From NCBI GenBank assembly GCA_045542315.1, contig JAZQKU010000075.1, positions 3,700 to 67,699 on the forward strand: 64,000 nt of DNA. The letters are read 5' to 3'. This DNA is from Eubacteriales bacterium. Lineage in GTDB: Bacteria > Bacillota > Clostridia > Oscillospirales > RGIG5299. Shown piece by piece: positions 1,852-32,845 of this stretch. The notes below the pieces were generated by a model. It worked only from the letters and a program-made list of their open reading frames with translations, searched no databases and had not been told where the DNA came from. Each line of letters begins with the position of its first letter. Within the stretch, counting starts at the first letter, position 1. Position numbers and translations under genes: made by a program.

Positions 1852-2718
1852 ATGAGGCTTACCGATATAAACGAAATAAAGAGGCTTGCCGGAAAGCACG
1901 GCTTTCGGTTTTCAAAAACCCTCGGTCAGAACTTTCTTACCGATGAGGAGGTGGTTGAGGAGACCGCTTTTGCTTCCGCCGAAAACGGAGTAAAATACGT
2001 CCTTGAGGTAGGTCCCGGCTTCGGAGTGCTTACCGAAAAGCTTTCGAAGCAGTATGAAAAGGTGGTTGCGGTTGAAATAGACCGCGCTGTTTTGCCGGTT
2101 TTGGAGGAAACTCTTGCAAACTGCGAAAACGTCACCGTTATTAACGCCGACGTTATGAAAACAGACCTTCACGCCCTTATAAACGAGCATTTTGAGGGTG
2201 GGCCGATAAACGTTGCGGCGAATTTACCCTACTACATAACAACCCCCGTTATAACCTCGCTTCTGGAATCGGGCGCGAATATCGCCTCGATAACCGTTAT
2301 GGTGCAAAAGGAGGTTGCCGACAGGCTCGTAGCCGCTCCCGGCTCGAAGGACTGCGGTGCGATAACCGCCGCAGTGGCTTACAGAGCAAGAGCGAAAAAG
2401 CTTTTTGACGTGCCGCCCGAAAGCTTTATTCCCGCGCCGAAGGTCACCTCAAGCGTTATAAAGCTTGAAATGCTTTCGGAGCCTGCGGTAAAGGTTTTTG
2501 AGGAAAAATTATTTTTTGAAATTATCAAAGCGGCTTTCGCCCAAAGAAGAAAGCAGCTTTCAAACTCCCTTGCAAACGCATTTCCGCGCTTCTCGAAGGA
2601 AACGGTGCAAAGGGCAATAGAGCAAGCGGGGCTTTCCCCCGACGTGCGCGGCGAAAAGCTTACTCTTGATGATTTTGCCGCAATAAGCGATTTTTTATCC
2701 AAAGGAGATAATATATAA
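1852..2718 (+). CDS. rsmA: 16S rRNA (adenine1518/1519-N6)-dimethyltransferase RsmA/KsgA
   Basis: Motifs LGQNFL, VLEVGPGFGVLT (SAM-binding) and NLPYYITT. The ATG at 1852 follows GGAG and sits 1 nt after the comM stop, so the ORF-track start at 1825 is probably too early. Confidence 0.9.
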   Translation: MRLTDINEIKRLAGKHGFRFSKTLGQNFLTDEEVVEETAFASAENGVKYVLEVGPGFGVLTEKLSKQYEKVVAVEIDRAVLPVLEETLANCENVTVINADVMKTDLHALINEHFEGGPINVAANLPYYITTPVITSLLESGANIASITVMVQKEVADRLVAAPGSKDCGAITAAVAYRARAKKLFDVPPESFIPAPKVTSSVIKLEMLSEPAVKVFEEKLFFEIIKAAFAQRRKQLSNSLANAFPRFSKETVQRAIEQAGLSPDVRGEKLTLDDFAAISDFLSKGDNI

Positions 2719-3915
2719 ATGGACTACATTTTTTCAGACAGAATTTCGGGCTTAAAGCCGAGCGCAATAAGAGAAATACTCAAATACGGCTCCGATCCTA
2801 AAATGATAGCATTTTCTGCGGGCAACCCCGCTCCCGAGTCGTTTCCCGTTTCCGAAATGAAGGAGATCTCGGCGGAGATATTCGACACGATGCCCTCGCT
2901 TGCCCTTCAGTACGGCATTACCGAGGGATACACTCCCCTTCGTGAGAAGGTAAGGGCGCGCCTTATTAAAAAATTCGAAAGCGTTTCCGATAACGATGAG
3001 GTGATCATCACGTCGGGCGGTCAGCAGGGGCTTGAGCTTGCCTGCAAGGTGCTTTGCAACGAGCACGACACGGTGCTTTGCGAGGACCCCTCCTTTATAG
3101 GCGCTTTAAACTCCTTCCGTTCCTATAACGTAAACCTCGTCGGCGTTGAAACCGACTCGGAGGGTATTATAATCGAAAGGCTTGAGGAGGCACTCAAAAA
3201 AGAGAAAAACGTGCGCTTCCTTTACACTATTCCCACCTTCCACAACCCCACGGGAAAGACTCTTTCTCTTGAAAGAAGAAAAGCGATATATGAGCTTGCC
3301 TGCAAATATAATATAATTATCCTTGAGGATAACCCCTACGGCGAGCTTCGCTTCAAGGGAAAAGACGTTCCCACGATAAAGTCGATGGATAAAGAGGGCA
3401 GAGTTATCTATGCGGGAAGCTTCTCGAAGATACTTTCTGCGGGAATACGAATCGGCTTCGTTTCGGCGCCGAAGGAGATAGCGTCAAAGATGACGGTTGC
3501 AAAGCAGGTGTCCGACGTTCACACCAATCAGTTCTTCCAGATACTTGCCGACAAATATCTTGAAAAATACGATCTCGATACCCATATTGCAAAAATAAGA
3601 GAGCTTTATTTCAAAAAGGCGTCGCTTATGAGAAACGGGCTTTTGGAAAGCTCGAAGGGAATTTCAGATAAGGTAAGCTACACCGACCCCGAGGGCGGTC
3701 TCTTTATGTGGGCAGAGCTTCCCAAGGGCTTTGACGTTATAGCTTTCTCGAAGGTGCTTCTTGAAAACTGTGTTGCGATAGTCCCCGGCGTTGCCTTTGC
3801 GGCAGATCCCTCGGTGCCCGTTTCGGCATTCCGCTTAAACTACTCCACTCCCTCCGATGAGCAGATCATAAAGGGAACCGAAATAGTGGGCAAAGAGCTT
3901 GCAAAATTACTTTAA
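2719..3915 (+). CDS. PLP-dependent aminotransferase, class I/II (aminoadipate/aromatic aminotransferase-like)
   Basis: 398 aa with SFSKILSAGIRIGF (PLP-lysine SxSK motif) and the HNPTG motif. RBS AAAGGAGA upstream. The start directly abuts the rsmA stop. Confidence 0.8.
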   Translation: MDYIFSDRISGLKPSAIREILKYGSDPKMIAFSAGNPAPESFPVSEMKEISAEIFDTMPSLALQYGITEGYTPLREKVRARLIKKFESVSDNDEVIITSGGQQGLELACKVLCNEHDTVLCEDPSFIGALNSFRSYNVNLVGVETDSEGIIIERLEEALKKEKNVRFLYTIPTFHNPTGKTLSLERRKAIYELACKYNIIILEDNPYGELRFKGKDVPTIKSMDKEGRVIYAGSFSKILSAGIRIGFVSAPKEIASKMTVAKQVSDVHTNQFFQILADKYLEKYDLDTHIAKIRELYFKKASLMRNGLLESSKGISDKVSYTDPEGGLFMWAELPKGFDVIAFSKVLLENCVAIVPGVAFAADPSVPVSAFRLNYSTPSDEQIIKGTEIVGKELAKLL

Positions 3916-3928
3916 GAGGTGAAAATAT

Positions 3929-4723
3929 ATGGCAAAAATTGATTTTAACGCCAAAAAAGGCTTTATCTCCGATATGGACGGCGTTATCTATCACGGTAAC
4001 AAAATTCTTCCCGGAGTTGCCGAGTTTATTGAGTGGTTAAGCACCGAGAAAAAGGAATATCTTTTTCTCACAAACAACTCGAGCTACACCCCATTGGAGC
4101 TTCAGTATAAGCTTAAGAGAATGGGACTTGAGGTCCCCGAGCATCATTTCTACACCAGCGCACTTGCAACCGCAAGCTTTTTAAAGGATCAGGCGCCCGG
4201 TTGTTCGGTTTACGTTATAGGTGAGGCAGGTCTTACCCACGCTCTTTATGAGGTGGGCTGCACGATGAACGAAGTAAACCCCGATTACGTTGTTGTGGGT
4301 GAAGGTAAAACCTATACGTTAGACACCCTTACCAAAGCAACCAACCTCGTTTTGAAGGGCGCAAAGCTTATCGGTGCAAATTCCGATATTTCGGGTCCCA
4401 TCGAAAACGGCATTGCTCCCGCTTGCCGCGCTCTTGTTGCACCTATTGAAATGGCGGCAGGCGTTGAGGCGTATTTCTGCGGCAAGCCCAATCCTCTTAT
4501 GATGCGCTCGGCTCTTAAGAAGCTCGGCGTTCACTCGGAGGAGGCGGTTCTCGTGGGTGACAGAATGGATACCGACGTAGTTTCCGGTCTTGAATCGGGT
4601 ATGTCGACCGTTTTGGTGCTTTCGGGCATTTCAACTCCCGAAACTCTCAAAAGCTACGGCTACGGCCCCTCAATGGTGCTTGACGGCGTAGGCGACATCG
4701 TTAAAATTGCAAAGGAAGGATAA
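3929..4723 (+). CDS. HAD-IIA family hydrolase (NagD-like sugar phosphatase)
   Basis: N-terminal DMDGVIY (DxDG nucleophile motif), LTNNS, GKPNPLMM and VGDRMDTD motifs. Confidence 0.8.
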   Translation: MAKIDFNAKKGFISDMDGVIYHGNKILPGVAEFIEWLSTEKKEYLFLTNNSSYTPLELQYKLKRMGLEVPEHHFYTSALATASFLKDQAPGCSVYVIGEAGLTHALYEVGCTMNEVNPDYVVVGEGKTYTLDTLTKATNLVLKGAKLIGANSDISGPIENGIAPACRALVAPIEMAAGVEAYFCGKPNPLMMRSALKKLGVHSEEAVLVGDRMDTDVVSGLESGMSTVLVLSGISTPETLKSYGYGPSMVLDGVGDIVKIAKEG

Positions 4724-4799
4724 CCGAAATTTATCTGTTGACAGCGGCTTTTTCTTTTGATATAATAAAAATAATCCTATAAGAAAGGTAAGACTTATA

Positions 4800-7540: not shown

Positions 7541-7633
7541 AAAAATATCTCCTTGCAATATGGGTGTTTTTGTTAAAATTTCTTGCACTTTTATTGAGTT
7601 TATAGTATTATATTATATAGAGATTAAAAAAGA

Positions 7634-7983
7634 AAGCGAGCAAACCCGTAAGCCGAGTTCTGTTCTATGCAATCATCTATCTCGAGCAGCCGTTACCGAC
7701 TGCCTCAAGCCACCATGGAAACGGGACGGGCAGCCCCATATGCTTCGCAGCGGTGTTGCTCCGGATAGGGTTTACAGGAAGCCTGTGTTACCATAGGCTT
7801 CGGTGAGCTCTTACCTCGCCTTTCCACCCTTACCTCGTAAACGAGGCGGTATATCTCTGTTGCACTTTCCCGGGAGTCGCCTCCGGCGGACGTTATCCGT
7901 TATCCTGCCCTTTGGAGCTCGGACTTTCCTCAACAGACGGTTTTTCAACGCTTGTCTGTCGCGACTGCTCGGTTTGCTCGCCG
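7634..7983 (-). ncRNA. rnpB: RNase P RNA, bacterial class A
   Basis: The minus-strand RNA reads GAGGAAAGUCCGAGCUCCAAAGGGCAGG ... GGUAAGGGUGGAAAGGCGAGGUAAGAGCUCACC ... ACAGAACUCGGCUUAC. P1 forms between 7971-7981 and 7636-7647. This is close to the E. coli M1 RNA universal core. Confidence 0.93.
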
Positions 7984-16899: not shown

Positions 16900-18610
16900 C
16901 TGAAGCTCGATTATTTCTTAATTTTAAGCAACATAAAAGAGCAAGAATTACTCCTTGCTTCATTTTTTATAAAAAATAACTATGCTGCTACGCGATAGGC
17001 AAATCCAACAAAATGCTTGGTTCTTAGATTGCGTTTATCTCTTCTTCCGGGACGTATGGGTTCTGTATATTTTTCAATTTCAATAATCAATTCTTTAAAA
17101 TCTGTTTTTAGTTTTTTATAAAAAAGTCTACACAAATGAACAGCCATCGTGTAATCGACCTTATAATTATAAACGGCATTATCTCGTTTGTGAATTTTTG
17201 CATTGCTCACTATTCGACTACAATAATTATACATAATTATTGATGAATATATCTCTTGTTTTACTAAATCCTCTTTTTTGCAATGGAAATTAATTAATCC
17301 TACTACATACTTTACTTCTCGAAAAGACGTCTCTATTCCCCAACGCATATGATAAAGCGCTTTAATCTCTGACATGGAAAATTTACTGCGGGGTAACGAA
17401 GTTATAACGGTTTCATATTCACCGGTATCTAACATAAAGCGAACTACACGAAAACTCATTGCATAGGGAGACCCGAAATCCCAATTTCTCATAACTGTGT
17501 TGGAACTATAGCACTTATTTTTATTGTGGATTTGTATAAATATCCTGTTATGCATTTTATCTTCTTTGGTTTGAGTTGTAGTTAACTCAAAAGAAATGTC
17601 TTTATCAAGTTCTATCATCGGAAGCTTCGAAATATCACGAAAAGCTCCCTTTCCTTGCTTGACTCGCATTAAAAAGTCTACGTTTTCCGTATTAATTAAA
17701 TGAGCAATCAAATTATATCCTTCATAACCGCGATCGGCAATAATTATATTATTCCCTTGAAATGCATTACGCTTTAACATCGTTATCAATGCTTCGTGTT
17801 CGTTAGATTTCGGAACAGGTTGTAGTAATATATCTTTGAAGGTCCTATTTAGTACATCGTATAAGGCATTTAAGTGAGTTTGGTTAAATCCTTTTTCATT
17901 TTTCAGAGTTGTAATAAAGCTTTCTAAATCAGGATTGCGAAAATGATTGATCTTCGACCCATCAACCGCAAAAACTCTATATCCTTTATATTTTTCTCTA
18001 TCGTTACTTAATGAGTTGAATTGCTTTAATATTGTTTCAAAAGCCTGATATTGTATTTTTGAACGTTGCTGCACAAACGCAGATGAGGTGACGTCAATTT
18101 TATTTGTCTTCCCAAAGTCATACAACTCTTTCTTTAGTGAGCCACCTTCCATCGATATAATAAGCTTAATGACCTTTTCTAATGTCAATTTACGGTTCCG
18201 TGTGAAATCGGTGGTGGGATTTTTAACAAAATCCTGTTTGTTTGCAATTACGAATTCAATTGCCTTTTCTAAATTTTGATGAATGTTTTTTACAATAGAC
18301 ATTATTTCCTTTCCGTATGCAGGTGCGGTTTAGAACTATAAAAGGGATACTTTAAATATCCGAAAGTTCTGTTCCGGCAGAACCTTTTTTCTTTTATAGT
18401 GGGGGTTTTAACACAAAAACGCCCTTACATACAAAAAACACTTGAAACATTACTGTGATGTAAACGTGTAAATAAATCACATTGTTTACAAGCAAGTGCT
18501 TTTTTAAAATGTAAGAGCGCAACACCTCAACCATATATCATGGAATTCTTGCCTATTCGATTTTTGTTTTGTACATTATACTCTATTATAGCATTTGATG
18601 TCAAGGAAAA
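16900..18610 (-). mobile_element. IS4-family insertion sequence; boundaries not resolved
   Basis: Contains the transposase CDS and a terminator-like hairpin (agcaag...cttgct) just past its stop. A possible TTGACA-18 nt-TATAAT promoter lies on the minus strand at 18575-18604. I could not identify terminal inverted repeats by eye. Confidence 0.4.
16980..18302 (-). CDS. IS4-family DDE transposase
   Basis: 440 aa with FAVDGS, ADRGYEGYNLIAHL and YHMRWGIETSFREVKY (Y-x2-R-x3-E-x6-K signature of the IS4 family). Confidence 0.85.
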   Translation of the reverse strand: MSIVKNIHQNLEKAIEFVIANKQDFVKNPTTDFTRNRKLTLEKVIKLIISMEGGSLKKELYDFGKTNKIDVTSSAFVQQRSKIQYQAFETILKQFNSLSNDREKYKGYRVFAVDGSKINHFRNPDLESFITTLKNEKGFNQTHLNALYDVLNRTFKDILLQPVPKSNEHEALITMLKRNAFQGNNIIIADRGYEGYNLIAHLINTENVDFLMRVKQGKGAFRDISKLPMIELDKDISFELTTTQTKEDKMHNRIFIQIHNKNKCYSSNTVMRNWDFGSPYAMSFRVVRFMLDTGEYETVITSLPRSKFSMSEIKALYHMRWGIETSFREVKYVVGLINFHCKKEDLVKQEIYSSIIMYNYCSRIVSNAKIHKRDNAVYNYKVDYTMAVHLCRLFYKKLKTDFKELIIEIEKYTEPIRPGRRDKRNLRTKHFVGFAYRVAA

Positions 18611-18934: not shown

Positions 18935-21900
18935 ATGCAATTTTGGAAAAACCTCAGACGATTAATTTCGTTCTTGCTGTGTATTGTAATGATTTCAACG
19001 ATGCTGCCTATGGGTATTTTTACAGTTAGTGCGGAAACCACAGATGGCGATTATATCTATACAGTATCAAATGGTGAGGCAATTATAATCGGGTACAACT
19101 CCATCAGTGGCAGTGTTGTTATACCCTCAACTTTAGGTGGATATCCTGTAACGGCTATAGGCGAGTATGCTTTTGAAAGTTGTTGGGGCTTAGAAGGTAT
19201 TATAATTCCAGACAGTATTACAATTATAGGCGATTACGCGTTCTCTTATTGCGGTGATCTTGCAAGTGTTATACTAGGTAATAGTGTTATAACTATAGGA
19301 GATTCTGCATTCTCTGATTGTTGGGAACTTAAAAATATAACAATTCCCGACAGCGTTATAACTATAGATGATTATGCATTTGCTTATTGTTCCAACCTTC
19401 AGAGCGTCACCTTGGGCAAGAGTGTTGCAACCATAGGCTCTGGAGCATTCTCTAGTTGCGATGGCCTTGAGAGTATTACAATTCCCGATAGCGTTATAAC
19501 TATAGGCAATTCTGCATTTAGGAATTGTTATAACCTTGAGAGTATTATAATTCCAGATAGCGTTACGACTATAGGCAGTTATGCATTTGCTAGTTGCTCT
19601 AACCTTGAGAACATCACTGTCGATAATAATAACAATTATTATTCTTCATTCGATGGGGTGTTATTTAATAAAGATAAAACAACACTTTTATCTTATCCTA
19701 AAGGTAATAAAGCAACGTCTTATACAATTCCCAATAGTGTTACAACTATAGAAGATGAGGCATTTTCTAATTGCGATAACCTTAATAATATTATAATTCC
19801 CGATAGTGTTACAACTATAGCCGACAGAGCGTTATCTTATTGTGACAATCTTAGGAGTGTTACAATTTTTAATGGCGTTATAACTATAGGCAATTCTGCA
19901 TTTAGGAATTGTTATAACCTTGAGAGTATTATAATTCCAGATAGCGTTACGACTATAGGCAGTTATGCATTTGCTAGTTGCACTAACCTTGACAGTGTAA
20001 CACTGGGAAAGGGTGTTGAAATCATAGGCTCTAGTGCATTCTCCAATTGTGATACCCTTCAGAATATCACTATTGATAATAATAACAATTATTATTCTTC
20101 AATCGATGGCAGTCTGTTTGATAAAGATAAAACAACACTTATATCTTATCTTGCAAGCAATACAGCAACGTCTTATACAATTCCTAATAGTGTTGTAGCT
20201 ATAGGTGATTCTGCATTCTCCGGTTGCGAGAATCTTGAGAGTATTACAATTCCCAATAGTGTTGTAACTATAGGTAGGTATGCATTTGAGAATTGTTCTA
20301 ACCTTGAAAGTGTTACAATTCTCAATAGCGCTATAAACATAGGCCATGGTGCATTTGATGGTTGTTCTAACCTTAAAAGCATAAGCAAACCGGCTGATAC
20401 TGATGAGTTTGCAGGAGGATGCGGCACAGAAACAGATCCGTATTTAATTGTAACAGAAGAACATCTTGACAATGTTCGTGATTATCTTTATGCACATTTT
20501 AAAATGATTGCGGATATTGAGTTTGCCGATAGTATAAATTGGGAACCGATTGGCGATGATTACAAACCCTTTACAGGCACCTTTGACGGAAATGGATGTA
20601 AGATTAAAAACCTTTATATTTATACTGAATATACCGGTGGAAGCGGTGTCGGACTTTTTGGTTATATCAAAGAAGGCACTGTAAAAAATCTCGGATTAGA
20701 AAACGGAAATATAACTGCGACCGAGGAAGAATGGTCCTCTTTACCCGGAGGAGGAATGGGAGTTGGTAGGGATCCGACAGTATACGTAGGCAGCATTGCA
20801 GGAATTGTAGAGAAAGGCACAATAACTAACTGTTACAATACAGGTAATGTATCTGGTTTAAATCCCGCAGATCCTTATACAGGCGGTATTGTGGGCGATT
20901 TATATGGAGGAACAATATCTGATTGCTATAATACCGGTAACATTACAGGAGAGGGTTGGGCTACTGGTGGTATTGCGGGTACTGCTTCAGGCACAATAAC
21001 CAATTGTTATAATGTAGGTAATGTTTCTGCAACTTCAACTTACGAATTTTACGTAGGTGGTATTATTGGCTCTGCTTCAGGCACAGTTTCTAATTGCTAT
21101 TATTTAGATAATATTTCTGTTGGTGTAGGGAACGGAACCGACACTTGCACAAAATGCTCTTGCGAAGAAATGCAACATCAATCAACCTTCGTTGGTTTTG
21201 ATTTTAACGAGGTTTGGGTTATTAATAGCAATATTAAGTATAAATTTCCTCAATTGCAAAACAATCCTTACATTGTTGAACTGTTATCAATTGAAATAAC
21301 CGTAAAACCAACCAAACTCACATATATCGAAGGTGAACCCATTGACCCGACAGGAATGGTTGTTACGGCTTACTATAACAATAACACTTCGAAAATTGTC
21401 ACGGATTACGCCGTTAGCGGTTCCACCGCTAACCCCGGAACTTCAACAATTACCATAACCTACGGCGGTAAAACCGCAACATTTAACGTTACGGTTGAAA
21501 CAAAGCAACTCACATCTATTGCGGTAACTACAAAACCCACCAAATTCACCTATCTTGAAGGCGAATCCTTTGACAAAACCGGTATGGTTGTTACCGCATA
21601 TTATAGCAATGGCACTTCCGAAATCATAACTGACTACGCCGTAAGCGGTTACGATTCAAATCCAGGAACTTATACAATTACCATAACCCATGGTGGAAAG
21701 ACTGCAACATTCAACGTTACAGTTGATGCAAAGCGACTCACATCTATTGCAGTTACAACAAAACCCAATAAGCTCACTTATTTTGAAGGCGAAAATTTTG
21801 ATGCCACAGGGTTGGTTGTCACGGCGTATTATAACAATAACTCCTCTGAAGTTATAAATAATTACACCATAAGTGGCTACGATTCTACGATTGGGAAAAA

Positions 21901-24900
21901 AGACATTGCAGTTACTTATAACGGTAGAGTCTACTATTTTTCCGTCGAAGTTATACCTATAGAAATTAAATTCATAAAGGTTACTACAGAACCAAGTAAA
22001 CTCACCTATGTCGTAGGCGAAGATTTTGATGCCACAGGTATGGTCGTTACGGCTTATTATAATAATGGTGCCTCTGAAGTTATAACCGATTACACCATAA
22101 GTAGTGATCCGTTTTCTGTTGTTGGTACTTATATGATCACTATAACTTATCGTGATAAAACTGATATTTTGATTGCTACGGTTATTCCTGTAGAACTCAT
22201 TTCAATAAAGGTTACCACAAAACCTAATCAACTCACCTATCACGAAGGAGAAGCCTTTAAAACTACAGGTATGGTTGTTACGGCTTATTATAACAATGGC
22301 ACCTCTGAAGTTATAACCGATTATACTGTCAGCGGTTATAATTCTGATTCTGGTACTAACAGCATTACTGTAGCTTACTGTGGTAAGACTGACAGTTTTG
22401 AACTCGAGGTAATTCCGCTTACTTCAATAGAAGTAGCTACGAAACCTACAAAACTTATATATCTCGAAGGCGACAACTTAAGCACAAGCGGTATGGTCGT
22501 TGTTGCGTATTACAGTGATGGCTACTCTATAAAAATAAGTGGGGCTAACATTCCTTATGGTTTTTACACTGTCTCCGGCTATACCTCCACTCCGGGCACA
22601 AAGACGATCACTGTAGCTTACTGTGGTAAGACTGACAGTTTTGAGGTTGAAGTAAGTCCAATTACTTCAATTACCGTTGGCAGACCAAATAAACTCACTT
22701 ATCTCGAAGGTGAAGATTTTGATGCTACGGGTATGGAGATTTATGTCTATTGCGCCAATCTTCAACTACCGGGTGATACTGTTCGAAATTATTATATAAG
22801 CACAACTGATTACACCATTAATGGCTATACTTCTACACCCGGTATTAAAACTATTACTATTACTTGCTGGGGTAAAACCGACAGTTTTGAGGTTGAAGTC
22901 CTTCCGCTTACTTCAATAGAAGTAACTACGAAACCTACTAAGCTCACCTATCTCGAAGGCGAAGATTTTGATGCTACGGGTATGGTTGTCACGGCTTATT
23001 ACAATAATTATATTCCTGTAGTTATAACTGATTATATAGTAGATGGGTACGATTCTGAATCAGGCACTAAAAACATTACTGTAACTTTCAATGGTAAAAC
23101 CGATAGTTTTAAAGTCGATGTAAGTCCGGAGGGACTCACCTCAATAGCTGTCGCTAAAAAACCAAGCAAGCGCACATATCTTGAAGGCGAAAGTTTTGAC
23201 GCTACAGATATGGTTGTTGTTGCGTATTACAGTGATGGCTACTTTGAACGAATAACAGACTACACCGTTAGTGGTTATACCTCTAAACCTGGTACTAAAA
23301 CAATTACTGTCAAATTTAACGGTAAAACTGATTCTTTTTCCGTTGTTGTCAATGATAAGGTTCCATCAACTAAAGTCTACTATTCAGATATCTTCTACGG
23401 ATATGATGCCTCGTATTTATCCAATGATGTTGGGTTAAAAATGCATTATTCGGATACCCATATTATTGAAAGAATATATAACGAGTATGCTGCAAGTAAC
23501 CAGAGTTTTTGGACTCAGTTTGAAACTGCGTTGGATGCAAGCCTCCCAGTGTTTAAATTGGATTTTAGACAGTATGCAATGTTGATGTCAGACACATTCG
23601 GAGGCACCGACTATATTTATCAGAAATCTTTAGATAGTGCCAATTTGGTATTTGCCCAAAATATATTCAAAAGCTACAGGGGGGCTGTTTTATCTGAAGA
23701 TGCAGATACATTTGGCGCTGCTAAAAAACTTTATAAGCGCGTAGAGTCACTGCTTAAAGTTTATGATACTTTCGAAAAAAACTACGACGTATATGAGATG
23801 ACAGACTACGAAGTCTTTTATGAAATGTTTGAGTATGTTAAGGGCCAAGGAATTTTTGTTTTTGTTGGTAGTGCAAACATAACCAAAATTGAAGAAGTAG
23901 TTCTAAAAGACGTTAAAAAATATATGGATATGTTTGATAAAGCAGCAACCGCGGCAGAAGTTGCTCAAGCAATTCTTATAGCCGCTATGATGGAAGATGT
24001 TAGAATGGAAATTGTTGATGAAGTTCTTGCAGCTGCTCCCACAGATTCAGTCATATACGATGGAATGTCGCGCTTAAAGAAACAACTCTCTGGAGGCTTT
24101 GTTACCTATTTTGCCGAAAACTATTTGAAAGAGGTCTTTTTGGATACTCTTGTTAAAGGAATTACTAAGCCCATAGTAGATACAATTAGAGAAGAACACG
24201 GTACATATGCTCTTTGTGTTGATGCGCTGTCAGTGGCATCGTGGGTATTCTTTGATCGTATATTTGATATTCCAGATCTTGGAGAAATGACAACCCAAAA
24301 GGTTTTGGGAGATTATGTTAACGGTTTTCACGAGATTCTTAAATCAAAATGTAATGCATTTAATGAGCAATTTACCGTAGATGATATATCAAAATTTGAA
24401 GCACTATTCGATGGTTATATTGCAGCTACAAATGCAGCACTTGAAGAGTCTAAAAAATTCCAATTGCCGAGCAACGAAGAAGATCTTCTTATTGCTACTG
24501 TTTTGTGGCAAAATTATGATTATGATGATTATATAAACGATATTATCAAAGAAATTGAAAATACTCCTGTTTCCGAAAGAAAAATTAAGTTTTTTGAGGA
24601 ATGGGACTATAACTTAGGAGATAAGTTCAGGGTTGCATCAGATACTATTGAAAAAAATTCAATATATATGTTTAACGGCGATTTTTTGGCAAATATGTAT
24701 ATTAGTTTTATTGTATATGATGATATATTTACAATATTTGCCGATGAAACAACACAAATAAGTATAAAGGGGGATTTAAATGTCTATAATCCATATAACG
24801 GTTATATCTATACTGATGATGGTCACTATAATCTTTTTATAACGATTCCTGAAGGAAAAACCTTGCGAATTGGTGGTAATTTTACAGTTGGTGGCGCAAA

Positions 24901-27367
24901 AGCACTAACATATATACGCAATTATGGAACGTTAATTTGTGAAAAAAATGTAAGTTTTGAAGAAAATTTGGGGCTATATAGACCTTATGAAGATTCAAAA
25001 ATAATTGTAAAGGGTAATTTGAGCATAGGTGACGGTATTTATGTTTATTACGGCACAATAGAATTTGCGGGAACCGAGCAACAAGAAATATATTTGCCTA
25101 AAGCACACAATGTCGAAGTTACAAATCCCAAGGGTATAAAGTATTTGACAGATTTAAGGTTGTATGGAGAATATAACCTTAATGGAAATCCATTACATTC
25201 AAATGGATTTTATACCATTTTGGAGCGGGCGCAATATTCCAAATTAGATGGTTCGGATTTTCAAGAAGTTATAATCAACAGCTATTATGATTTTATACTG
25301 GATTTTAATATTAAAGGCAATGTATATATTGCGAATAACATCACTGTAAATATTCCCGAGGAGGCTACTGTAGAAATTGACGGAAATATTACAATTGGAG
25401 ATGACTACGCCAGCACAGCACGTTTAATTAACGAAGGAACATTAATTTGTACAGGAAATATACATGACGACGGGTATGGAAGATTTTCTCAATCCGAAGA
25501 CAGTAGGTTGATTTTCAAGGGCAAAGAGTTGTCAATTGCGATAGGTGAGGGTACTATAGAATTTGCAGGAACCGAACAACAGCATATATACGGTTTTACA
25601 TATTTTGATAATATTGAAGTTACAAATCCAAATGGCATAAAGTACCACGGTCAGGTACGTGTGTCCGGGAAATACAACCTCAATGGTAACCCGTTAGATG
25701 TTAATGTCTACAATACTTTTTTACACAAAGGAGCTGATTTGGATGATTCGGAATTTCAAAGAGTTTATTTAGACGATGGGTATATAGTAAAAAATAGTAT
25801 AAATGCCGATATATATGTAACGTGTCCAGATAATGGTGCATTTATTGAATTCACAAACAGTGACAACCATAATATTATTATTAATGGAAATTTGTGTGTA
25901 CATAACGATTATGATTATTCAAGTAATCGTTACCCTATCAACATATATATTTCCGCAGAGACCACAGTAACGATCAATGGAAGTATTATGATTGATGGTG
26001 AATTTGGAAACACTTATGTAAACAATTATGGAACATTGATTTGTGAGCAAAATATCGCTTTCAAGAATAACGTCAAATATATACCATCCGCAGAATCTAA
26101 ATTGATATTAAAAGGGGATTTGAATTTTGGCTCAAATAACTATCAACACATCACCAGTGGCATAATAGAATTTGCAGGAACAGAGAAACAAGAGGCGAAC
26201 TTGGATTCAGCGAATATTGTTGAAATAAGTAATGCATCCAATGAAGGCGTAGTTTTTACCTCGAAAATTTCTGTTTATGAACTTTTCGACCACAAGGGCA
26301 ACAATTTCACCCTCTATAACAACGGCTCAGGTTCAACTTTTGTGGATTACGACGGCGACGGTATGCTTGATAATGTAGATCCGTATCCCACAATTGATAA
26401 TCACAAGCACGATTACGCCAACCAAGGCGCTTGCACCATTTGCGGAGCATATAGAGCAAAGTTTTCAGGTGCATCACTTACGCTTGAGGATAATATTGCA
26501 GTTAACTTTAAGGTTGATCCCAAACAATTCGAAGGAACCGAATACAGCAATCCCTACGTTGTATTTACCTTCAACGGAAATCAATTCACAGTAACAGATT
26601 ACACTATTGATTCAAATGGACGATATGCGTTTACATTCAGCGATATTGCACCGCGTATGATGAATGATTCCGTCGTTGCCACATTGTATGTCATATACAA
26701 CGGAGAACCGGTTGAATGTCAAACAAGAAGCTACAGCGTTAAAGAGTATTGCTATAATATGCTCTCTCGCTGCAACGAAGGTGGCGTATATGCCAACAAC
26801 GAAAAGTTTAAGGCATTGCTCGTGGACTTGCTTAACTACGGAGAAGCAGCTCAAATTTACGGCAATTATAACACCGATACACTTGTAACGGCAGATCTGA
26901 CCGAAACGCAAAAAGGTTGGGCAACAGATGCAAAACCGAATTTATCCACAGTCCAGAGTTTGACGTATAAAACAATCGAAAATCCCTCTGTAACTTGGAA
27001 AGCAGGCGGCTTGTTGCTCGAAGACGCGGTAACAATGAGGTTTAAATTTGCTACAGATTCCGTGGATGGCTTAACTGTAAAATTCTATACCGATAGTAAC
27101 CCCACCGGCTGGACGGTTGATGATAGCGAATTCGTTGAAACGACGGGTGGATATTATGTTTACTTTGACGGTTTAAAAGCTCGTCAAATGCGAGAAACTG
27201 TTTATATAACTGTTTATCGTGGCGACACTGCAGTTAGCAATACGGTCAGCTATAGCATTGAGTCTTATGCATATGCGAAACAAAACGATTCAAATGAGAA
27301 TTTGACGGCGTTATTGGAAGCAATGATGAAATACGGAGACTCGGCAGATAACTATATAAATGGATAA
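18935..27367 (+). CDS. giant secreted multi-repeat surface protein (BspA-type LRR, GLUG-like region, nine Ig-like repeats, helical region, three large repeats, duplicated C-terminal domain)
   Basis: 2810-aa ORF with RBS GGAGG and an N-terminal signal peptide. The LRR consensus is IPDSVTTIGxxAFxxCxNLxSITI. GGIVG/GGIAG/GGIIG motifs are present. There are nine copies of LTSIxVTTKPTKLTYLEGExFDxTGMVVTAYYxNG...GTKTITVxYxGKT. No LPxTG motif, SLH domain or C-terminal TM segment is visible. Confidence 0.9.
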   Translation: MQFWKNLRRLISFLLCIVMISTMLPMGIFTVSAETTDGDYIYTVSNGEAIIIGYNSISGSVVIPSTLGGYPVTAIGEYAFESCWGLEGIIIPDSITIIGDYAFSYCGDLASVILGNSVITIGDSAFSDCWELKNITIPDSVITIDDYAFAYCSNLQSVTLGKSVATIGSGAFSSCDGLESITIPDSVITIGNSAFRNCYNLESIIIPDSVTTIGSYAFASCSNLENITVDNNNNYYSSFDGVLFNKDKTTLLSYPKGNKATSYTIPNSVTTIEDEAFSNCDNLNNIIIPDSVTTIADRALSYCDNLRSVTIFNGVITIGNSAFRNCYNLESIIIPDSVTTIGSYAFASCTNLDSVTLGKGVEIIGSSAFSNCDTLQNITIDNNNNYYSSIDGSLFDKDKTTLISYLASNTATSYTIPNSVVAIGDSAFSGCENLESITIPNSVVTIGRYAFENCSNLESVTILNSAINIGHGAFDGCSNLKSISKPADTDEFAGGCGTETDPYLIVTEEHLDNVRDYLYAHFKMIADIEFADSINWEPIGDDYKPFTGTFDGNGCKIKNLYIYTEYTGGSGVGLFGYIKEGTVKNLGLENGNITATEEEWSSLPGGGMGVGRDPTVYVGSIAGIVEKGTITNCYNTGNVSGLNPADPYTGGIVGDLYGGTISDCYNTGNITGEGWATGGIAGTASGTITNCYNVGNVSATSTYEFYVGGIIGSASGTVSNCYYLDNISVGVGNGTDTCTKCSCEEMQHQSTFVGFDFNEVWVINSNIKYKFPQLQNNPYIVELLSIEITVKPTKLTYIEGEPIDPTGMVVTAYYNNNTSKIVTDYAVSGSTANPGTSTITITYGGKTATFNVTVETKQLTSIAVTTKPTKFTYLEGESFDKTGMVVTAYYSNGTSEIITDYAVSGYDSNPGTYTITITHGGKTATFNVTVDAKRLTSIAVTTKPNKLTYFEGENFDATGLVVTAYYNNNSSEVINNYTISGYDSTIGKKDIAVTYNGRVYYFSVEVIPIEIKFIKVTTEPSKLTYVVGEDFDATGMVVTAYYNNGASEVITDYTISSDPFSVVGTYMITITYRDKTDILIATVIPVELISIKVTTKPNQLTYHEGEAFKTTGMVVTAYYNNGTSEVITDYTVSGYNSDSGTNSITVAYCGKTDSFELEVIPLTSIEVATKPTKLIYLEGDNLSTSGMVVVAYYSDGYSIKISGANIPYGFYTVSGYTSTPGTKTITVAYCGKTDSFEVEVSPITSITVGRPNKLTYLEGEDFDATGMEIYVYCANLQLPGDTVRNYYISTTDYTINGYTSTPGIKTITITCWGKTDSFEVEVLPLTSIEVTTKPTKLTYLEGEDFDATGMVVTAYYNNYIPVVITDYIVDGYDSESGTKNITVTFNGKTDSFKVDVSPEGLTSIAVAKKPSKRTYLEGESFDATDMVVVAYYSDGYFERITDYTVSGYTSKPGTKTITVKFNGKTDSFSVVVNDKVPSTKVYYSDIFYGYDASYLSNDVGLKMHYSDTHIIERIYNEYAASNQSFWTQFETALDASLPVFKLDFRQYAMLMSDTFGGTDYIYQKSLDSANLVFAQNIFKSYRGAVLSEDADTFGAAKKLYKRVESLLKVYDTFEKNYDVYEMTDYEVFYEMFEYVKGQGIFVFVGSANITKIEEVVLKDVKKYMDMFDKAATAAEVAQAILIAAMMEDVRMEIVDEVLAAAPTDSVIYDGMSRLKKQLSGGFVTYFAENYLKEVFLDTLVKGITKPIVDTIREEHGTYALCVDALSVASWVFFDRIFDIPDLGEMTTQKVLGDYVNGFHEILKSKCNAFNEQFTVDDISKFEALFDGYIAATNAALEESKKFQLPSNEEDLLIATVLWQNYDYDDYINDIIKEIENTPVSERKIKFFEEWDYNLGDKFRVASDTIEKNSIYMFNGDFLANMYISFIVYDDIFTIFADETTQISIKGDLNVYNPYNGYIYTDDGHYNLFITIPEGKTLRIGGNFTVGGAKALTYIRNYGTLICEKNVSFEENLGLYRPYEDSKIIVKGNLSIGDGIYVYYGTIEFAGTEQQEIYLPKAHNVEVTNPKGIKYLTDLRLYGEYNLNGNPLHSNGFYTILERAQYSKLDGSDFQEVIINSYYDFILDFNIKGNVYIANNITVNIPEEATVEIDGNITIGDDYASTARLINEGTLICTGNIHDDGYGRFSQSEDSRLIFKGKELSIAIGEGTIEFAGTEQQHIYGFTYFDNIEVTNPNGIKYHGQVRVSGKYNLNGNPLDVNVYNTFLHKGADLDDSEFQRVYLDDGYIVKNSINADIYVTCPDNGAFIEFTNSDNHNIIINGNLCVHNDYDYSSNRYPINIYISAETTVTINGSIMIDGEFGNTYVNNYGTLICEQNIAFKNNVKYIPSAESKLILKGDLNFGSNNYQHITSGIIEFAGTEKQEANLDSANIVEISNASNEGVVFTSKISVYELFDHKGNNFTLYNNGSGSTFVDYDGDGMLDNVDPYPTIDNHKHDYANQGACTICGAYRAKFSGASLTLEDNIAVNFKVDPKQFEGTEYSNPYVVFTFNGNQFTVTDYTIDSNGRYAFTFSDIAPRMMNDSVVATLYVIYNGEPVECQTRSYSVKEYCYNMLSRCNEGGVYANNEKFKALLVDLLNYGEAAQIYGNYNTDTLVTADLTETQKGWATDAKPNLSTVQSLTYKTIENPSVTWKAGGLLLEDAVTMRFKFATDSVDGLTVKFYTDSNPTGWTVDDSEFVETTGGYYVYFDGLKARQMRETVYITVYRGDTAVSNTVSYSIESYAYAKQNDSNENLTALLEAMMKYGDSADNYING
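19491..19981 (+). repeat. two perfect 107-bp direct copies inside the LRR-coding region (19491-19597 and 19875-19981)
   Basis: gcgttataactataggcaattctgcatttaggaattgttataaccttgagagtattataattccagatagcgttacgactataggcagttatgcatttgctagttgc occurs identically twice, offset by 384 bp (128 codons). Confidence 0.9.
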
Positions 27368-27555: not shown

Positions 27556-27595
27556 AAACTCCCGAAATTCATAATGAATCTCGGGAGTTTTTCTT
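27556..27595. terminator. bidirectional terminator between convergent genes
   Basis: aaactcccga ... tcgggagttt is a 10-bp stem, followed by a T-run and preceded by an A-rich stretch. Confidence 0.8.
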
Positions 27596-27624: not shown

Positions 27625-28803
27625 TCAATCTACTTTTTCATATATATACGGTGTAGAAAAATATCTGCGGCGGTGGCCTTCTAATACTTCTTCTAACGAG
27701 TCTGTGTCAATTTCAATAGATAAATCCTCATGAGCTATGTTGTTTGTGCCATCAGGAAAAACAACAAGATTATTATAGTTTTTTTCTTTATACGTCACAT
27801 CTCCTGTATATTCCAAAGAAAGATAAACTTTATCATCAAAAGCACCGTTTTTGTTATAACGATCTGCAGAATAGATAGTTATTAATTTGACTGAAAGATC
27901 GGGATTTTCGGTTGGAGTATAAAAATACGTTCCGACATAAGAAAGAGCTTTGAATTTGGCATCCTCGTTTTCTTCTAACATTGAAAGCTCATTATTTTCA
28001 AAATTAGCCTTAATATCGTCTATTGTAGTTTTTGAAACGTCTTTTGCTGTCATAAATTGGGGCAAACCCGAAACAGTTATTACTTTAACGGTTTCATTGG
28101 GAACAGCGTTAAGCCTTATGGAATCGTCTAAATCATACTCTATCATAACGGTTACTTTATCGCCGTTTTTAAGCTTGTAACTGTTATCTGCTGAAAATCT
28201 GCAAAGCTGTGTAAATGGATTCTCGGAATTATTTATTATTTCTAAACGGGCATAACCACTAACGCCCGTTATTTCAAACTCAACGTCCTTGAAAACGTCT
28301 ATAACCTCGGCTTCGGGTAAATTTTCAACCGTGAACGTTTTACTGCCGCATTTGATCTTAGATGCGGCATCTCCTCTTGCCAAAATTGTAACGGTAACGG
28401 TATCGCCGTTGCTTAAGTTCTCTGTCTTATCGCAGCTGTACGATATTGTGTCGGAATACTCCTCGTATTTCATTTCCCATTTAAAATATTCCTCGAAGTT
28501 CATCTCATTGGGAGCTTCGCCGATAATTTTAGAAATAAGCGCTCTGTCATCAAACGAGACGTAAGCTGTGCCGTAACCGTCGTTACCGTCAAAGGTGACT
28601 TCAACGTAATCAAAGGTGTTTATCTTTGAGGAAACTGCCATTACAATTAAAATCGGTACCAATATAGCCACCGCGATAACGCCGATAATGGTCGCCTTCA
28701 TCGGAGTGGTCCACTTGCTCTCGCCCTGAGCCTTTTTTGCAGCCTCGCAGCTGCATTTTTCAAATAATGGTATCTTGTTACCGCAGTGTTCACAGTATTT
28801 CAT
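27625..28803 (-). CDS. membrane-anchored protein: N-terminal zinc ribbon, one TM helix, repeated extracellular beta-rich domains
   Basis: 392 aa. The N-terminus is MKYCEHCGN...CSCEAAKK, followed by a hydrophobic helix (ATIIGVIAVAILVPILIVMAV). Two similar modules each contain NGDxVTV. Confidence 0.7.
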   Translation of the reverse strand: MKYCEHCGNKIPLFEKCSCEAAKKAQGESKWTTPMKATIIGVIAVAILVPILIVMAVSSKINTFDYVEVTFDGNDGYGTAYVSFDDRALISKIIGEAPNEMNFEEYFKWEMKYEEYSDTISYSCDKTENLSNGDTVTVTILARGDAASKIKCGSKTFTVENLPEAEVIDVFKDVEFEITGVSGYARLEIINNSENPFTQLCRFSADNSYKLKNGDKVTVMIEYDLDDSIRLNAVPNETVKVITVSGLPQFMTAKDVSKTTIDDIKANFENNELSMLEENEDAKFKALSYVGTYFYTPTENPDLSVKLITIYSADRYNKNGAFDDKVYLSLEYTGDVTYKEKNYNNLVVFPDGTNNIAHEDLSIEIDTDSLEEVLEGHRRRYFSTPYIYEKVD

Positions 28804-28814
28804 TGTTATGCCTC

Positions 28815-29018
28815 CTAATTCTTTTTCTTGTATTCGTCAAACTTGAATATAAACGGCTCATAGCCGGGTAGACCGATAATAGCCTCACCTATTTGCAGGC
28901 GGGATATATCCCAATCCTCTACAACGTTGCCTTCACGCTGATTAGAATGCGTATATTCTTTTCCTAAAACATCGCCGCAATGCTTGCAGCGCACCTTACA
29001 AACACGTAAAAATTTCAT
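28815..29018 (-). CDS. 67-aa hypothetical protein (Cys-rich N-terminus)
   Basis: RBS AAGGAG. The gene sits 11 nt upstream of the 392-aa gene, whose own RBS GGAGG lies in that spacer. The N-terminus is MKFLRVCKVRCKHCGDV. Confidence 0.55.
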   Translation of the reverse strand: MKFLRVCKVRCKHCGDVLGKEYTHSNQREGNVVEDWDISRLQIGEAIIGLPGYEPFIFKFDEYKKKN

Positions 29019-29029
29019 TTTTTCTCCTT

Positions 29030-29334
29030 AAAAAACAAAAAAGACGCACTTACCCTCTTTCAAAAATGAAAGAAAGTAAAGTACGTCTTAAATTACATAC
29101 TTTCACAGAAAAGCTGGATCGACTTTTCCGTATACTATCTTTTTGGTTGCTGTTACCGTAGCCTTAATAATGGCCCCGTCCCCTTACGGCGATGAATCTG
29201 CTCTAAGACAGTTTGACCTTGGCGATAACTGATCCGCACAACCGGCGGCTTCCACTTATTACTGAATATATGCCATCTTCCCGGCGCTGGCTCAAGCGCT
29301 ACTTTTCTCGGTTGAGATGACTTCAGTTAATGTT
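29030..29334 (-). promoter_or_regulatory. roughly 300-nt GC-rich structured leader ending in an intrinsic terminator (candidate riboswitch or attenuator, class not recognised)
   Basis: The minus-strand terminator is aagacguacuuuacuuucuuuca-uuuu-ugaaagaggguaagugcgucuu plus UUUUUGUUUUUU (29030-29089), directly before the RBS. The leader is noticeably more GC-rich than the surrounding island and has many local helices. Confidence 0.5.
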
Positions 29335-29340
29335 GCTAAT

Positions 29341-29369
29341 ATTATATTATACCGCACACGTTTTGTCAA
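29341..29369 (-). promoter_or_regulatory. consensus sigma-A promoter (TTGACA-17 nt-TATAAT) on the minus strand
   Basis: tgtcaa at 29364-29369 and attata at 29341-29346 (plus-strand reading), giving a 17-nt spacer. Confidence 0.65.
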
Positions 29370-29491
29370 GTACATTATACCGCATTTGGCTTGTTAATAG
29401 CTACATTATACTTCAAAGGAGTATTGTAAAAAATACCCCCTATAGTTTCTTCTGCTATAGGGGGATTGTTAATATTATAAATTGTTTTTCC

Positions 29492-31694: not shown

Positions 31695-32071
31695 GACAAA
31701 TCAATCCTTTCTGTATAGGATTATAACAAATATTTTAATATATTACAAGAGGAAAAGGAAAATTGAGCAATTTTTTGACATCGAGAGCAATTTATTGCAT
31801 ATTTGCGGCAACTGTTTGACGCCGTTTTGTTGAATTTTGTAAAAATTGCAGAGAAAAAATCGTCAAAAGAAGGTTAAAAACCAAAAAATAAGATAATAAC
31901 GGTAAACTTGAAAACAAAAACAAAGATAATTTGTAATATATAAACAAAACCGCAAAATTCTCAAAACCAAAAGCTGTTTTATAGGAATTTTGTTAAAAGA
32001 GGATTTATTGTTTTGCAAATTGTAAAAATATGGTAAAATTTAAAACAACGTTCAAAGAAAGGAGAGAAACG

Positions 32072-32845
32072 ATGGAAAAAATCAAGGTAATTATTTTAGA
32101 TGACAGCACGACCTTCAGAAATCAGATGTCGATCGAGCTTCATCGAAAGGATTTTGAAATTGTCGGCGTAAGCGGAAACGGCGAAGAGGGAATAAAGCTC
32201 ATAAAGAGCGAGCGTCCCGACGTTGTAATAACCGATATTCTGCTTTCGGGAATCGACGGAATCGGAGTTATAAAAAAGATAAAGGAAGAAAATTTAAGGC
32301 GCGCACCCGTTTTTATAATAGCGACCAAGCTTTCAAGCGACTATCTCATGAGGGAGGCGAACGCTCTCGGAGTTGGCTATTATCTGTTAAAGCCGGTAAC
32401 TCCCGAGATCCTTTGTGAGAGGATCTCGAAGATAGCGGCGGCAAGAGGTAGAGCGGTAACGGAGCCGACGGCAGAGGGAAGCTTCTCGGGCGAGCTTGAA
32501 AGAGAGGTTACCGACTGCATTTTAGAGCTTGGTATTCCCGCACATATAAAGGGCTACTATTACATAAGAACGGCAATAATTATGGCAATGGAAAATCCCG
32601 AGCTTTTACACGCGGTAACGAAGATACTTTATCCCTCTATTGCAAAGAAATTTCAAACCACGCCCTCCCGCGTTGAACGGGCGATCCGCCACGCCATTGA
32701 GGTATCGTGGGAAAGAGGGGATATTGAGAAGCTTCAGGCGGTTTTCGGCTACACCGTTTCTGTAAGCAAGGGAAAGCCCACCAATTCGGAGTTTATCGCG
32801 CTTCTTGCAGATAAGCTTCGCTTAAAGCACAAAATAGCGGTGTAA
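32072..32845 (+). CDS. spo0A: sporulation master regulator Spo0A
   Basis: A receiver domain (VIILDDS ... [14 protein letters not shown]) is followed by the Spo0A C-terminal signature [20 protein letters not shown]...[15 protein letters not shown]. The ATG at 32072 follows AAGGAGAG. Confidence 0.93.

Follow-up and report, generated by a model that had tools for sequence, protein, structure and literature searches.

On the minus strand of the window, by which we mean the whole 64,000-nt stretch of Eubacteriales DNA that was analysed, a promoter matching the sigma-A consensus at 12 of 12 positions (TTGACA-17-TATAAT, 29341..29369) precedes a leader of about 290 nt whose transcription probably starts near 29334. 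The leader ends in an intrinsic terminator (29030..29088) made up of a 20-bp interrupted hairpin (29088-29042) with the U tract UUUUUUGUUUUUU (29042-29030) directly 3' of it. This is followed at once by the AAGGAG ribosome-binding site (29029-24) and ATG (29018-16; together 29016..29029) of a 67-aa open reading frame (28815..29018), then by a gene for a 392-aa zinc-ribbon/transmembrane protein with no family match (27625..28803) and by a terminator with a 16-pair stem (27556..27590) that closes this remnant operon, all on the minus strand. The G+C content is 0.45-0.54 over 29100-29300, as against 0.26-0.35 in both flanks. A preliminary description made from the sequence alone had already pointed to the consensus promoter (12/12 at 29369-29341), to a leader richer in G+C than its surroundings and to a long interrupted hairpin just before AAGGAG and ATG (here 20 pairs with one mismatch). 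All three are borne out, and the arrangement of promoter, terminator and ribosome-binding site proves to be conserved in the relatives described below.

Perfect TTGACA-17-TATAAT sites number five in the window, against 0.03 expected by chance, the other four lying at 4738, 12937, 15761 and 60665 (+). The spacer of the leader promoter contains a conserved box, GTGTGCGGTATAAT, and the -35 element, spacer box and -10 element are kept together in 13 relatives. An operator-like upstream copy of the box, (A)TGCGGTATAAT, lies at 29374..29385 on the minus strand, and the same duplicate is present in two related loci, L001 and L002 in our numbering. Similarity to the related elements starts at around 29385, roughly at this copy. 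Just outside that point, between a 718-aa gene and the leader region, there is an 11-bp G+C-rich hairpin at 29436-29464 (CCCCCTATAG...CTATAGGGGG) that reads as a terminator both ways.

The arms of the leader terminator, GACGUACUUUACUUUCUUUC and GAAAGAGGGUAAGUGCGUC, form 20 pairs with one mismatch and a predicted stability of -27.8 kcal/mol; across the relatives the stems measure 18-21 bp, with values from -21 to -29 kcal/mol. These stems are far longer than usual, typical Bacillus subtilis terminator stems being 9 +/- 2 bp (PMC10325885). In its lower part the stem does not vary, in its upper part it covaries, and the same design recurs in each of the three leader types distinguished below (A, B and C). 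In most relatives the ribosome-binding site lies no more than about 25 nt from the U tract, and no promoter-like site scoring at least 9/12 is present in the interval between terminator and gene. The terminator 5' arm is pyrimidine-rich at 29068-29080 (-) of the window and in homologues, and in the L042 clade reads ACCUUCUUUCUA, which resembles the 3' end of 16S rRNA (ACCUCCUUUCUA). The 3' arm is correspondingly like a Shine-Dalgarno sequence, and the resemblance may be a coincidence.

The 67-aa reading frame is a chimera. Residues 1-30 match the N-terminus of DUF7695 proteins (about 74 aa) and residues 26-67 the extreme C-terminus of TraG/VirD4-type coupling proteins, the two halves overlapping at a common NQREG; an exact look-up of the whole protein returned no contig. 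The order leader-then-DUF7695 is native, since it is also found in L040. The window contains no other part of the related elements and has neither an integrase nor an HTH gene. The chimeric reading frame and the absence of other element parts therefore indicate a deletion running from codon 30 of the first cassette gene to the end of the coupling-protein gene, the integrase included; the 392-aa gene presumably followed the coupling-protein gene in the intact element. Judged by its sequence, then, the window copy is a deleted, immobile remnant, and the 'two-gene operon' of the preliminary description is what the deletion left rather than the native context of the leader. Converging on the last gene of the relic is a gene for a 2810-aa secreted repeat protein with leucine-rich-repeat-like and Ig-like parts (18935-27367, +). 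The window also encodes Spo0A, with receiver and Spo0A_C domains (32030-32845, +), and the host is therefore an endospore-forming Firmicute (Clostridia).

The leader has relatives, all of them in Clostridia metagenome-assembled genomes and gut metagenomes: ten further distinct sequences of the same kind (type A), three of a second kind (type B) and one inverted, degenerate copy. Intergenic DNA of L001 and L002 matches the window leader at 79% identity across 372 nt, and L005 matches it at 69%, while further loci are recognised by nhmmer with E values of 1e-74 to 1e-114, bringing type A to 11 distinct sequences including that of the window. Additional copies were collected by a pattern scan of genomes (L006, L032) and from the neighbours of a conserved upstream gene. 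The scan of genome contigs gave 34 matches, five of them real and representing four distinct loci (L006, L032, L024 = L005 and L036 = L001); the remainder are not relatives, and the four that were examined are chance matches in coding DNA. A reading of the region as a pseudogene was set aside: there is no long reading frame in any frame, and tblastx similarity appears in all frames, as for conservation at the DNA level. The relatives have no reading frame in common.

The leader as a whole folds better than its shuffled versions (z = -3.4; none of 100 shuffles as good). RNAalifold applied to the 11 type-A RNAs (alignment A3) indicated compensatory changes in several helices, and the model, subsequently refined by eye and counted, comprises 67 pairs in 12 helices, every one of which is kept in the window copy. 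Paired cells amount to 96.0%, falling to 41-51% when the 3' partners are slid by one to three columns, and the covariation score is 0.202, which none of 500 shuffles reaches and which compares with 0.05-0.09 for the slid versions. Twelve pairs change on both sides, compared with 0-7 after sliding. The family was represented by about 14 distinct sequences from few clades, so that several of the covariations may go back to few events. The tally of pair types puts G-U at around 9% of paired cells, and for this reason the sense strand is taken to be the structured one.

The 5' domain (29261..29327; this and all following leader coordinates are on the minus strand) is a long irregular hairpin composed of P0a (29327-22 with 29266-61), P0b (29321-16 with 29277-72), P1a (29311-09 with 29283-81) and P1 (29299-95 with 29288-84). 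P0 recurs in single-sequence folds, three of the four pairs of P1 show changes on both sides, and a conserved A-rich bulge of about 10 nt separates P1a from P1. The core that follows, of about 160 nt (29103..29260), is a multi-helix junction with two pseudoknots. It opens with the junction UAUAAGUGGAA, the 5' junction J of the window copy reading UAAUAAGUGGAA, and with hairpin P2 (29248-45 with 29237-34). P3 (29229-23 with 29158-52) is closed by GUUAUCG/CGAUAAC, with an A-U pair, an A·C mismatch and a G-C pair all present among close relatives; it opens via P3d (29218-15 with 29175-72) into a junction bearing P3a (29211-08 with 29201-198) and P3b (29189-86 with 29179-76), after which come an A/C-rich strand and P4 (29130-23 with 29113-06). 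P3, P3a and P4 covary. In the first pseudoknot, PK1, the P2 loop GRUUGU (29243-38) pairs with ACAAYC just 3' of P3 (29150-45), and alignment columns 107 and 204, which correspond to 29242 and 29146 in the window, are G-C in four sequences and A-U in seven, with no exception. The second, PK2, joins UGGA of the 5' junction (29254-51) to the UCCA of the P4 loop (29118-15), which is invariant and hence gives no covariation signal. Many unpaired junction bases of the core are likewise invariant.

A covariance model of the type-A core, R1, scores the 11 type-A copies at 144-182 bits and finds a single copy within the window, at 177.8 bits. Type B (L041, L065 and L058) resembles type A in three respects: the promoter including its box, GTGCGGTATA, the way in which the terminator is built, and a spacing of about 316 nt (312-320 nt) between -35 element and terminator; its central part differs from that of type A. 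Helices analogous to those of type A can be drawn in type B. Compensatory changes of its own are present in its counterparts of P2 (GUCGC/GCGAC versus GCCGU/GCGGC), of PK1, which joins the P2 loop to a downstream strand (GACCGU/ACGGUU versus AAACGU/ACGUUU), and of P3 (GUUGAU/AUCAGC versus GUUCUG/CAGAGC) and P4 (GCAAGGAA/UUCUUGC versus GCAAAGA/UCUUUGC). R1 gives neither type B nor type C a significant score, even with filters off, and we infer that types A, B and C form one family from their shared promoter, terminator and length and their analogous helices, not from any model score. A leader-like unit in L060 (3445-3700, -) has the same type of terminator and a degenerate promoter box, AACCGTGTGTGG; it sits in inverted orientation in the interval from the HTH gene to the integrase gene, and a small-gene cassette is missing there.

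At gathering scores, the 4227 models of Rfam 15, among them T-box, the riboswitch classes, EAR, c4 and 6S, produce a sole match in the window, the bacterial class A RNase P RNA at 7633-7980 (-; 275.7 bits), and none in the leader. At E<=10 the leader attracts low scores only, mostly from its terminator hairpin and all far below gathering; the best, on that hairpin, is 26.7 bits against a threshold of 55.8. The type-B and type-C leaders and another type-A copy were also without a match (E<=10 or E<=1; four variants in all). A BLAST search with the leader found no match among PLSDB plasmids or INPHARED phages, and scans of IMG/VR and the JGI metagenomes with a type-A core pattern gave none either. 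A pattern combining promoter and terminator found nothing in IMG/VR and one type-B match in metagenomes (L065). The literature searched contains no description of this leader RNA family. We conclude that the leader stands for a genuine, conserved family of structured RNAs with no entry in Rfam 15. The preliminary description, which had reported no resemblance to known RNA classes, is upheld in that respect for every variant, and so is its view of the leader as a genuine structured RNA, which it proposed to check through homologues and covariation: both were found (79% identity over 372 nt in L001 and L002, nhmmer E values of 1e-74 to 1e-114, 12 pairs changing on both sides), and the fold exceeds that of shuffles. 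Its label of 'orphan' falls, type-A, type-B and inverted relatives having been found, all within one family of mobile elements.

The relatives lie in elements whose common features are an HTH_17 gene, the leader, variable small genes, a tyrosine integrase and a VirD4-like ATPase. The full order begins with an IS1595-type transposase and, on the opposite strand, a protein of 830-850 aa in which an LHH nuclease is fused to an IS1595-type DDE domain. Next come an approximately 150-aa protein whose C-terminal domain is HTH_17/excisionase-like, the leader, the variable small genes (HIRAN, YopX-like, DUF7695, Metallophos, HAD_SAK_2 and others without known family), the tyrosine integrase, a zinc-ribbon/membrane protein with two proteins without known family and, last, the VirD4/TraD-like ATPase. 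By this gene content the element is of an integrative kind, whether ICE, IME or prophage-like. In intact elements the leader heads the small-gene cassette, which runs up to the integrase. Leader and cassette occur together and are absent together: in L061 the HTH gene is directly followed by the integrase, with neither cassette nor leader. IMG/VR relatives of the HTH protein (L068-L070) have no leader; in one of them, L069, the same strong promoter is followed by a short leader of only about 40 nt.

Several of the transposase-related genes deserve mention in their own right. The fusion protein consists of an LHH (HNH/EndoVII-type) nuclease, a zinc ribbon and an IS1595-type DDE domain (1916-4453, -, in L005; homologues in L040-L045, L052, L058, L060, L061 and L066). 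Its gene always adjoins a separate 350-aa IS1595 transposase gene, the two forming an unusual conserved pair at one end of the element. In L006 an IS4-like transposase gene (441 aa; 2941-4266, -) has been inserted just downstream of the leader, and the window has a transposase gene 55% identical to it (16983-18302, -) about 11 kb from its own leader. The idea that the leader is an RNA guide for the IS1595/LHH genes or for the integrase was rejected, the former being absent from L001, L002 and the window and the integrase of L061 having no leader.

The promoter box has a second place in these elements. In the generalised form TTATACCGCAYAC, it occupies the promoter spacer (29346-29356, -, in the window) and recurs in seven loci, facing the other way, some 128 nt ahead of the integrase gene (for example at L005 7854, L040 7019, L041 6819, L058 5343 and L060 3860), where it sits within the palindrome TTATAC-N8-GTATAA. 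Copies of the box thus bracket leader and cassette. The box is probably the operator of a DNA-binding protein, and the adjacent HTH_17 protein is a candidate for binding it because it matches the PHROG family 'Cox-like excisionase and repressor'. If it does bind there, the leader would provide a second level of control, exerted after initiation, by analogy with pLS20 (PMC13401043).

A cis-regulatory, riboswitch-like function for the leader is plausible. In the mechanism that we favour, and to which we give about an even chance of being the whole explanation, the leader is a cis-acting conditional attenuator that gates transcription into the cassette. Transcribed from the sigma-A consensus promoter that heads the variable cassette of small genes, the RNA would fold into the 5' hairpin domain and the core of some 160 nt and end in the terminator of about 20 bp at the ribosome-binding site of the first cassette gene. 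By default transcription would stop there, an expectation founded on the terminator stem (18-21 bp) being far longer than usual, and this would silence the cassette together with the integrase gene where that lies downstream on the same strand. A gate acting in cis on the cassette is suggested because the promoter is of consensus type, the terminator abuts the ribosome-binding site in most copies and no promoter of at least 9/12 lies between terminator and gene. Leader attenuators and antiterminators at the head of operons of Gram-positive conjugative elements provide precedents (PMC13401043, PMC11658703, PMC8191782).

For read-through, a weak hairpin adjoining P4 and taking up the base of the terminator 5' arm would have to be stabilised by the folded core, probably with the help of a protein of the element or host or of a small ligand. 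The stabilisation might come from stacking on P4 in the pseudoknotted core, from the bound protein or ligand, or from both. The candidate strand is the linker just 3' of P4 (29090..29104), which as AAAGUAUGU can pair with ACGUACUUU at the base of the terminator 5' arm and would serve as a weak antiterminator. The linker reads AAAGUAUGU, GUGCGU, GUAUGU or AAGUAC in the type-A clades and GAAGU in type B, its partner being ACGUACUUU or ACUUC, and despite these different linker sequences the same terminator site is used in all type-A clades. The duplexes have 5-9 bp and -5 to -10 kcal/mol, with z values of -1.2 to -2.4 in type A. Searched for without restriction, upstream sequences able to pair with the terminator arms proved to lie at sites that differ from one homologue to the next, and no strong conserved antiterminator emerged. 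Against attenuation by this route stands the imbalance between the candidate antiterminator (-6 to -10 kcal/mol) and the terminator (-21 to -29 kcal/mol), and the degenerate L060 unit, which points the opposite way from the HTH and integrase genes, would be peculiar as an element acting purely in cis.

A narrower proposal in the same spirit is that the core is the aptamer of a new riboswitch class, with at least two structural versions, letting the element read a small molecule or second messenger of the host so as to time expression of the early cassette and, in elements that have it downstream, of the integrase. The covarying, aptamer-like core with its conserved unpaired bases is what such a class would display; the cassette genes are heterogeneous, do not form one pathway as the genes downstream of a riboswitch would, and hold no clue to a ligand. 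We regard this as possible, if rather unlikely; were it true, a mobile element would be carrying its own metabolite sensor for induction.

Other readings place the function of the leader elsewhere. Its main product might be the terminated RNA of about 300 nt itself, an abundant species with a function in trans, be it in immunity, in regulation or as a decoy or sponge, read-through being incidental. A perfect promoter and a very strong terminator do predict an abundant, discrete RNA, distinct cores (A, B and perhaps C) in a conserved promoter/terminator frame recall immunity types, and the inverted L060 unit would suit a stand-alone gene. Yet in the fetched flanks no complementarity of at least 11 nt to other parts of the loci was found, only chance-level stretches of 9-10 nt at non-homologous places, the covarying loop-to-strand pairings lie within the RNA, and the leader is always directly before a ribosome-binding site and accompanied by a cassette, a carrier of the HTH gene without cassette having no leader; we therefore hold a trans-acting role to be unlikely. 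Processive antitermination of the put, EAR, canT or conAn2 type, in which the leader would modify its own RNA polymerase to ignore this and later terminators, appears decidedly unlikely. It would account for the presence of so large and complex a cis RNA where a mobile-element operon begins, as in canT of Tn916 (340-450 nt with a complex predicted fold; PMC11658703), and for the fact that no convincing alternative pairing explains read-through. The cassettes, however, contain no strong same-strand terminators between leader and integrase, no Rfam family matches at all, and a 15-bp stem was already enough to make the terminator TerR resistant to conAn antitermination (PMC10325885), compared with some 20 bp here. 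That the terminator is a constitutive insulator, with a 5' structure that only stabilises or processes the transcript and does no switching, would fit the weak evidence for an antiterminator and the resemblance of its long stem to insulating terminators of ICEs such as T1 of Tn916 (PMC11658703). A core of 160 nt with two pseudoknots, covariation and many invariant unpaired bases exceeds what an insulator needs, and one placed right after the element's own consensus promoter would merely silence the cassette; we find a passive role quite improbable.

Two further readings seem to us highly improbable. The structure might act in single-stranded DNA, as a single-strand origin (sso) or Frpo-like promoter of a transferred element; the element does encode a VirD4-like coupling protein, and a strand-specific structure precedes a small-gene cassette resembling a leading region. 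Against this, a double-strand promoter, a U-tract terminator and a ribosome-binding site frame the structure on the same strand, the fold does not build -35 and -10 boxes, and G-U pairs are frequent. Equally improbable would be attenuation driven by a countertranscript, as in pIP501, pT181 and pCF10, or by a leader peptide, for which the layout of a leader of about 300 nt with a terminator just before the ribosome-binding site is classical; moreover, read on the antisense strand, P1 and the UAUUUUGU after it resemble a weak terminator. But no antisense promoter is conserved, none of at least 9/12 being present in the window, L001, L002, L006, L032 or L040 (6 of 11 sequences), and the antisense promoter-like site of the L042 clade falls on bases explained by P3d and PK1. 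For a leader peptide, no reading frame with a Shine-Dalgarno sequence is common to the clades, and the indels are of single bases, not multiples of three. The ideas of an antisense promoter, a leader peptide, a long-range antiterminator and, for the fetched flanks, a trans target were all set aside.

To our knowledge, the gating of Gram-positive mobile-element operons by leader RNAs (conAn, canT and the zipper attenuator) has come to light only recently, and all these cases stem from Bacilli-type plasmids and ICEs. The leader described here adds an unrelated and more elaborately folded example, with two pseudoknots in a covarying core, from uncultured gut Clostridia, and its design is modular: promoter and terminator are kept and the core is exchanged. 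Should the leader prove to respond to a signal, it would reveal the way in which these elements choose the moment for excision or for early gene expression. Whichever function holds, the family is a clean candidate for addition to Rfam, and the covariance model R1 would help to find and annotate these elements.

Among known systems, the pseudoknotted terminating riboswitches share with the leader a conserved, covarying core with invariant junction bases, followed by a terminator and a ribosome-binding site. The leader differs in that no known class matches and that a variable mobile-element cassette, rather than a coherent pathway, lies downstream; in addition, its terminator is better conserved than its core, which exists in at least two very different versions within the same frame. 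In satellite phage P4 (CI RNA) and in P1/P7 (c4), a constitutive promoter in the integrated element is followed by premature termination before the early genes. The leader resembles these in its layout of strong promoter and terminated leader and in having sequence types that could set specificity. Those systems need complementarity of a processed small RNA to target sites in the same transcript, whereas no extended complementarity was found here and the Rfam c4 model gave no match.

The put RNA of HK022 and EAR are cis-acting processive antiterminator RNAs. Like canT of Tn916 (PMC11658703) and conAn2 (PMC8191782), they resemble the leader in being structured RNAs made early in the transcript of a mobile element or operon, and they act in cis on termination, as is proposed for the leader. 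All four suppress several terminators further downstream, whereas the leader has a single terminator with a very long stem immediately after it; the first genes after the leader bear no conAn1 or conAn2 annotation.

The nearest parallel in layout is cATT, the zipper-type attenuator of pLS20-family plasmids (PMC13401043). As with the leader, it is long (456 nt in pLS20), lies downstream of a main promoter of a Gram-positive mobile element and has an intrinsic terminator just upstream of the Shine-Dalgarno sequence of the first operon gene; there, the folding of the RNA determines whether transcription continues, which is the logic proposed here for the leader. In the zipper design, a long imperfect stem-loop lies between a weak upstream hairpin and the terminator, and mutually complementary strands allow its stem to be extended (PMC13401043); cATT precedes conAn1/conAn2, where a conjugation operon begins. 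The leader folds instead into a multi-helix junction with two pseudoknots and belongs to an integrase-bearing element. Its sole candidate antiterminator is short and local. A long-range sequence complementary to the terminator is not conserved, and the upstream strands that pair best with the terminator arms lie at different points from homologue to homologue. In logic the family comes closest to the attenuators and antiterminators found in the leaders of Gram-positive conjugative elements, yet it has no relationship to them in sequence or fold.
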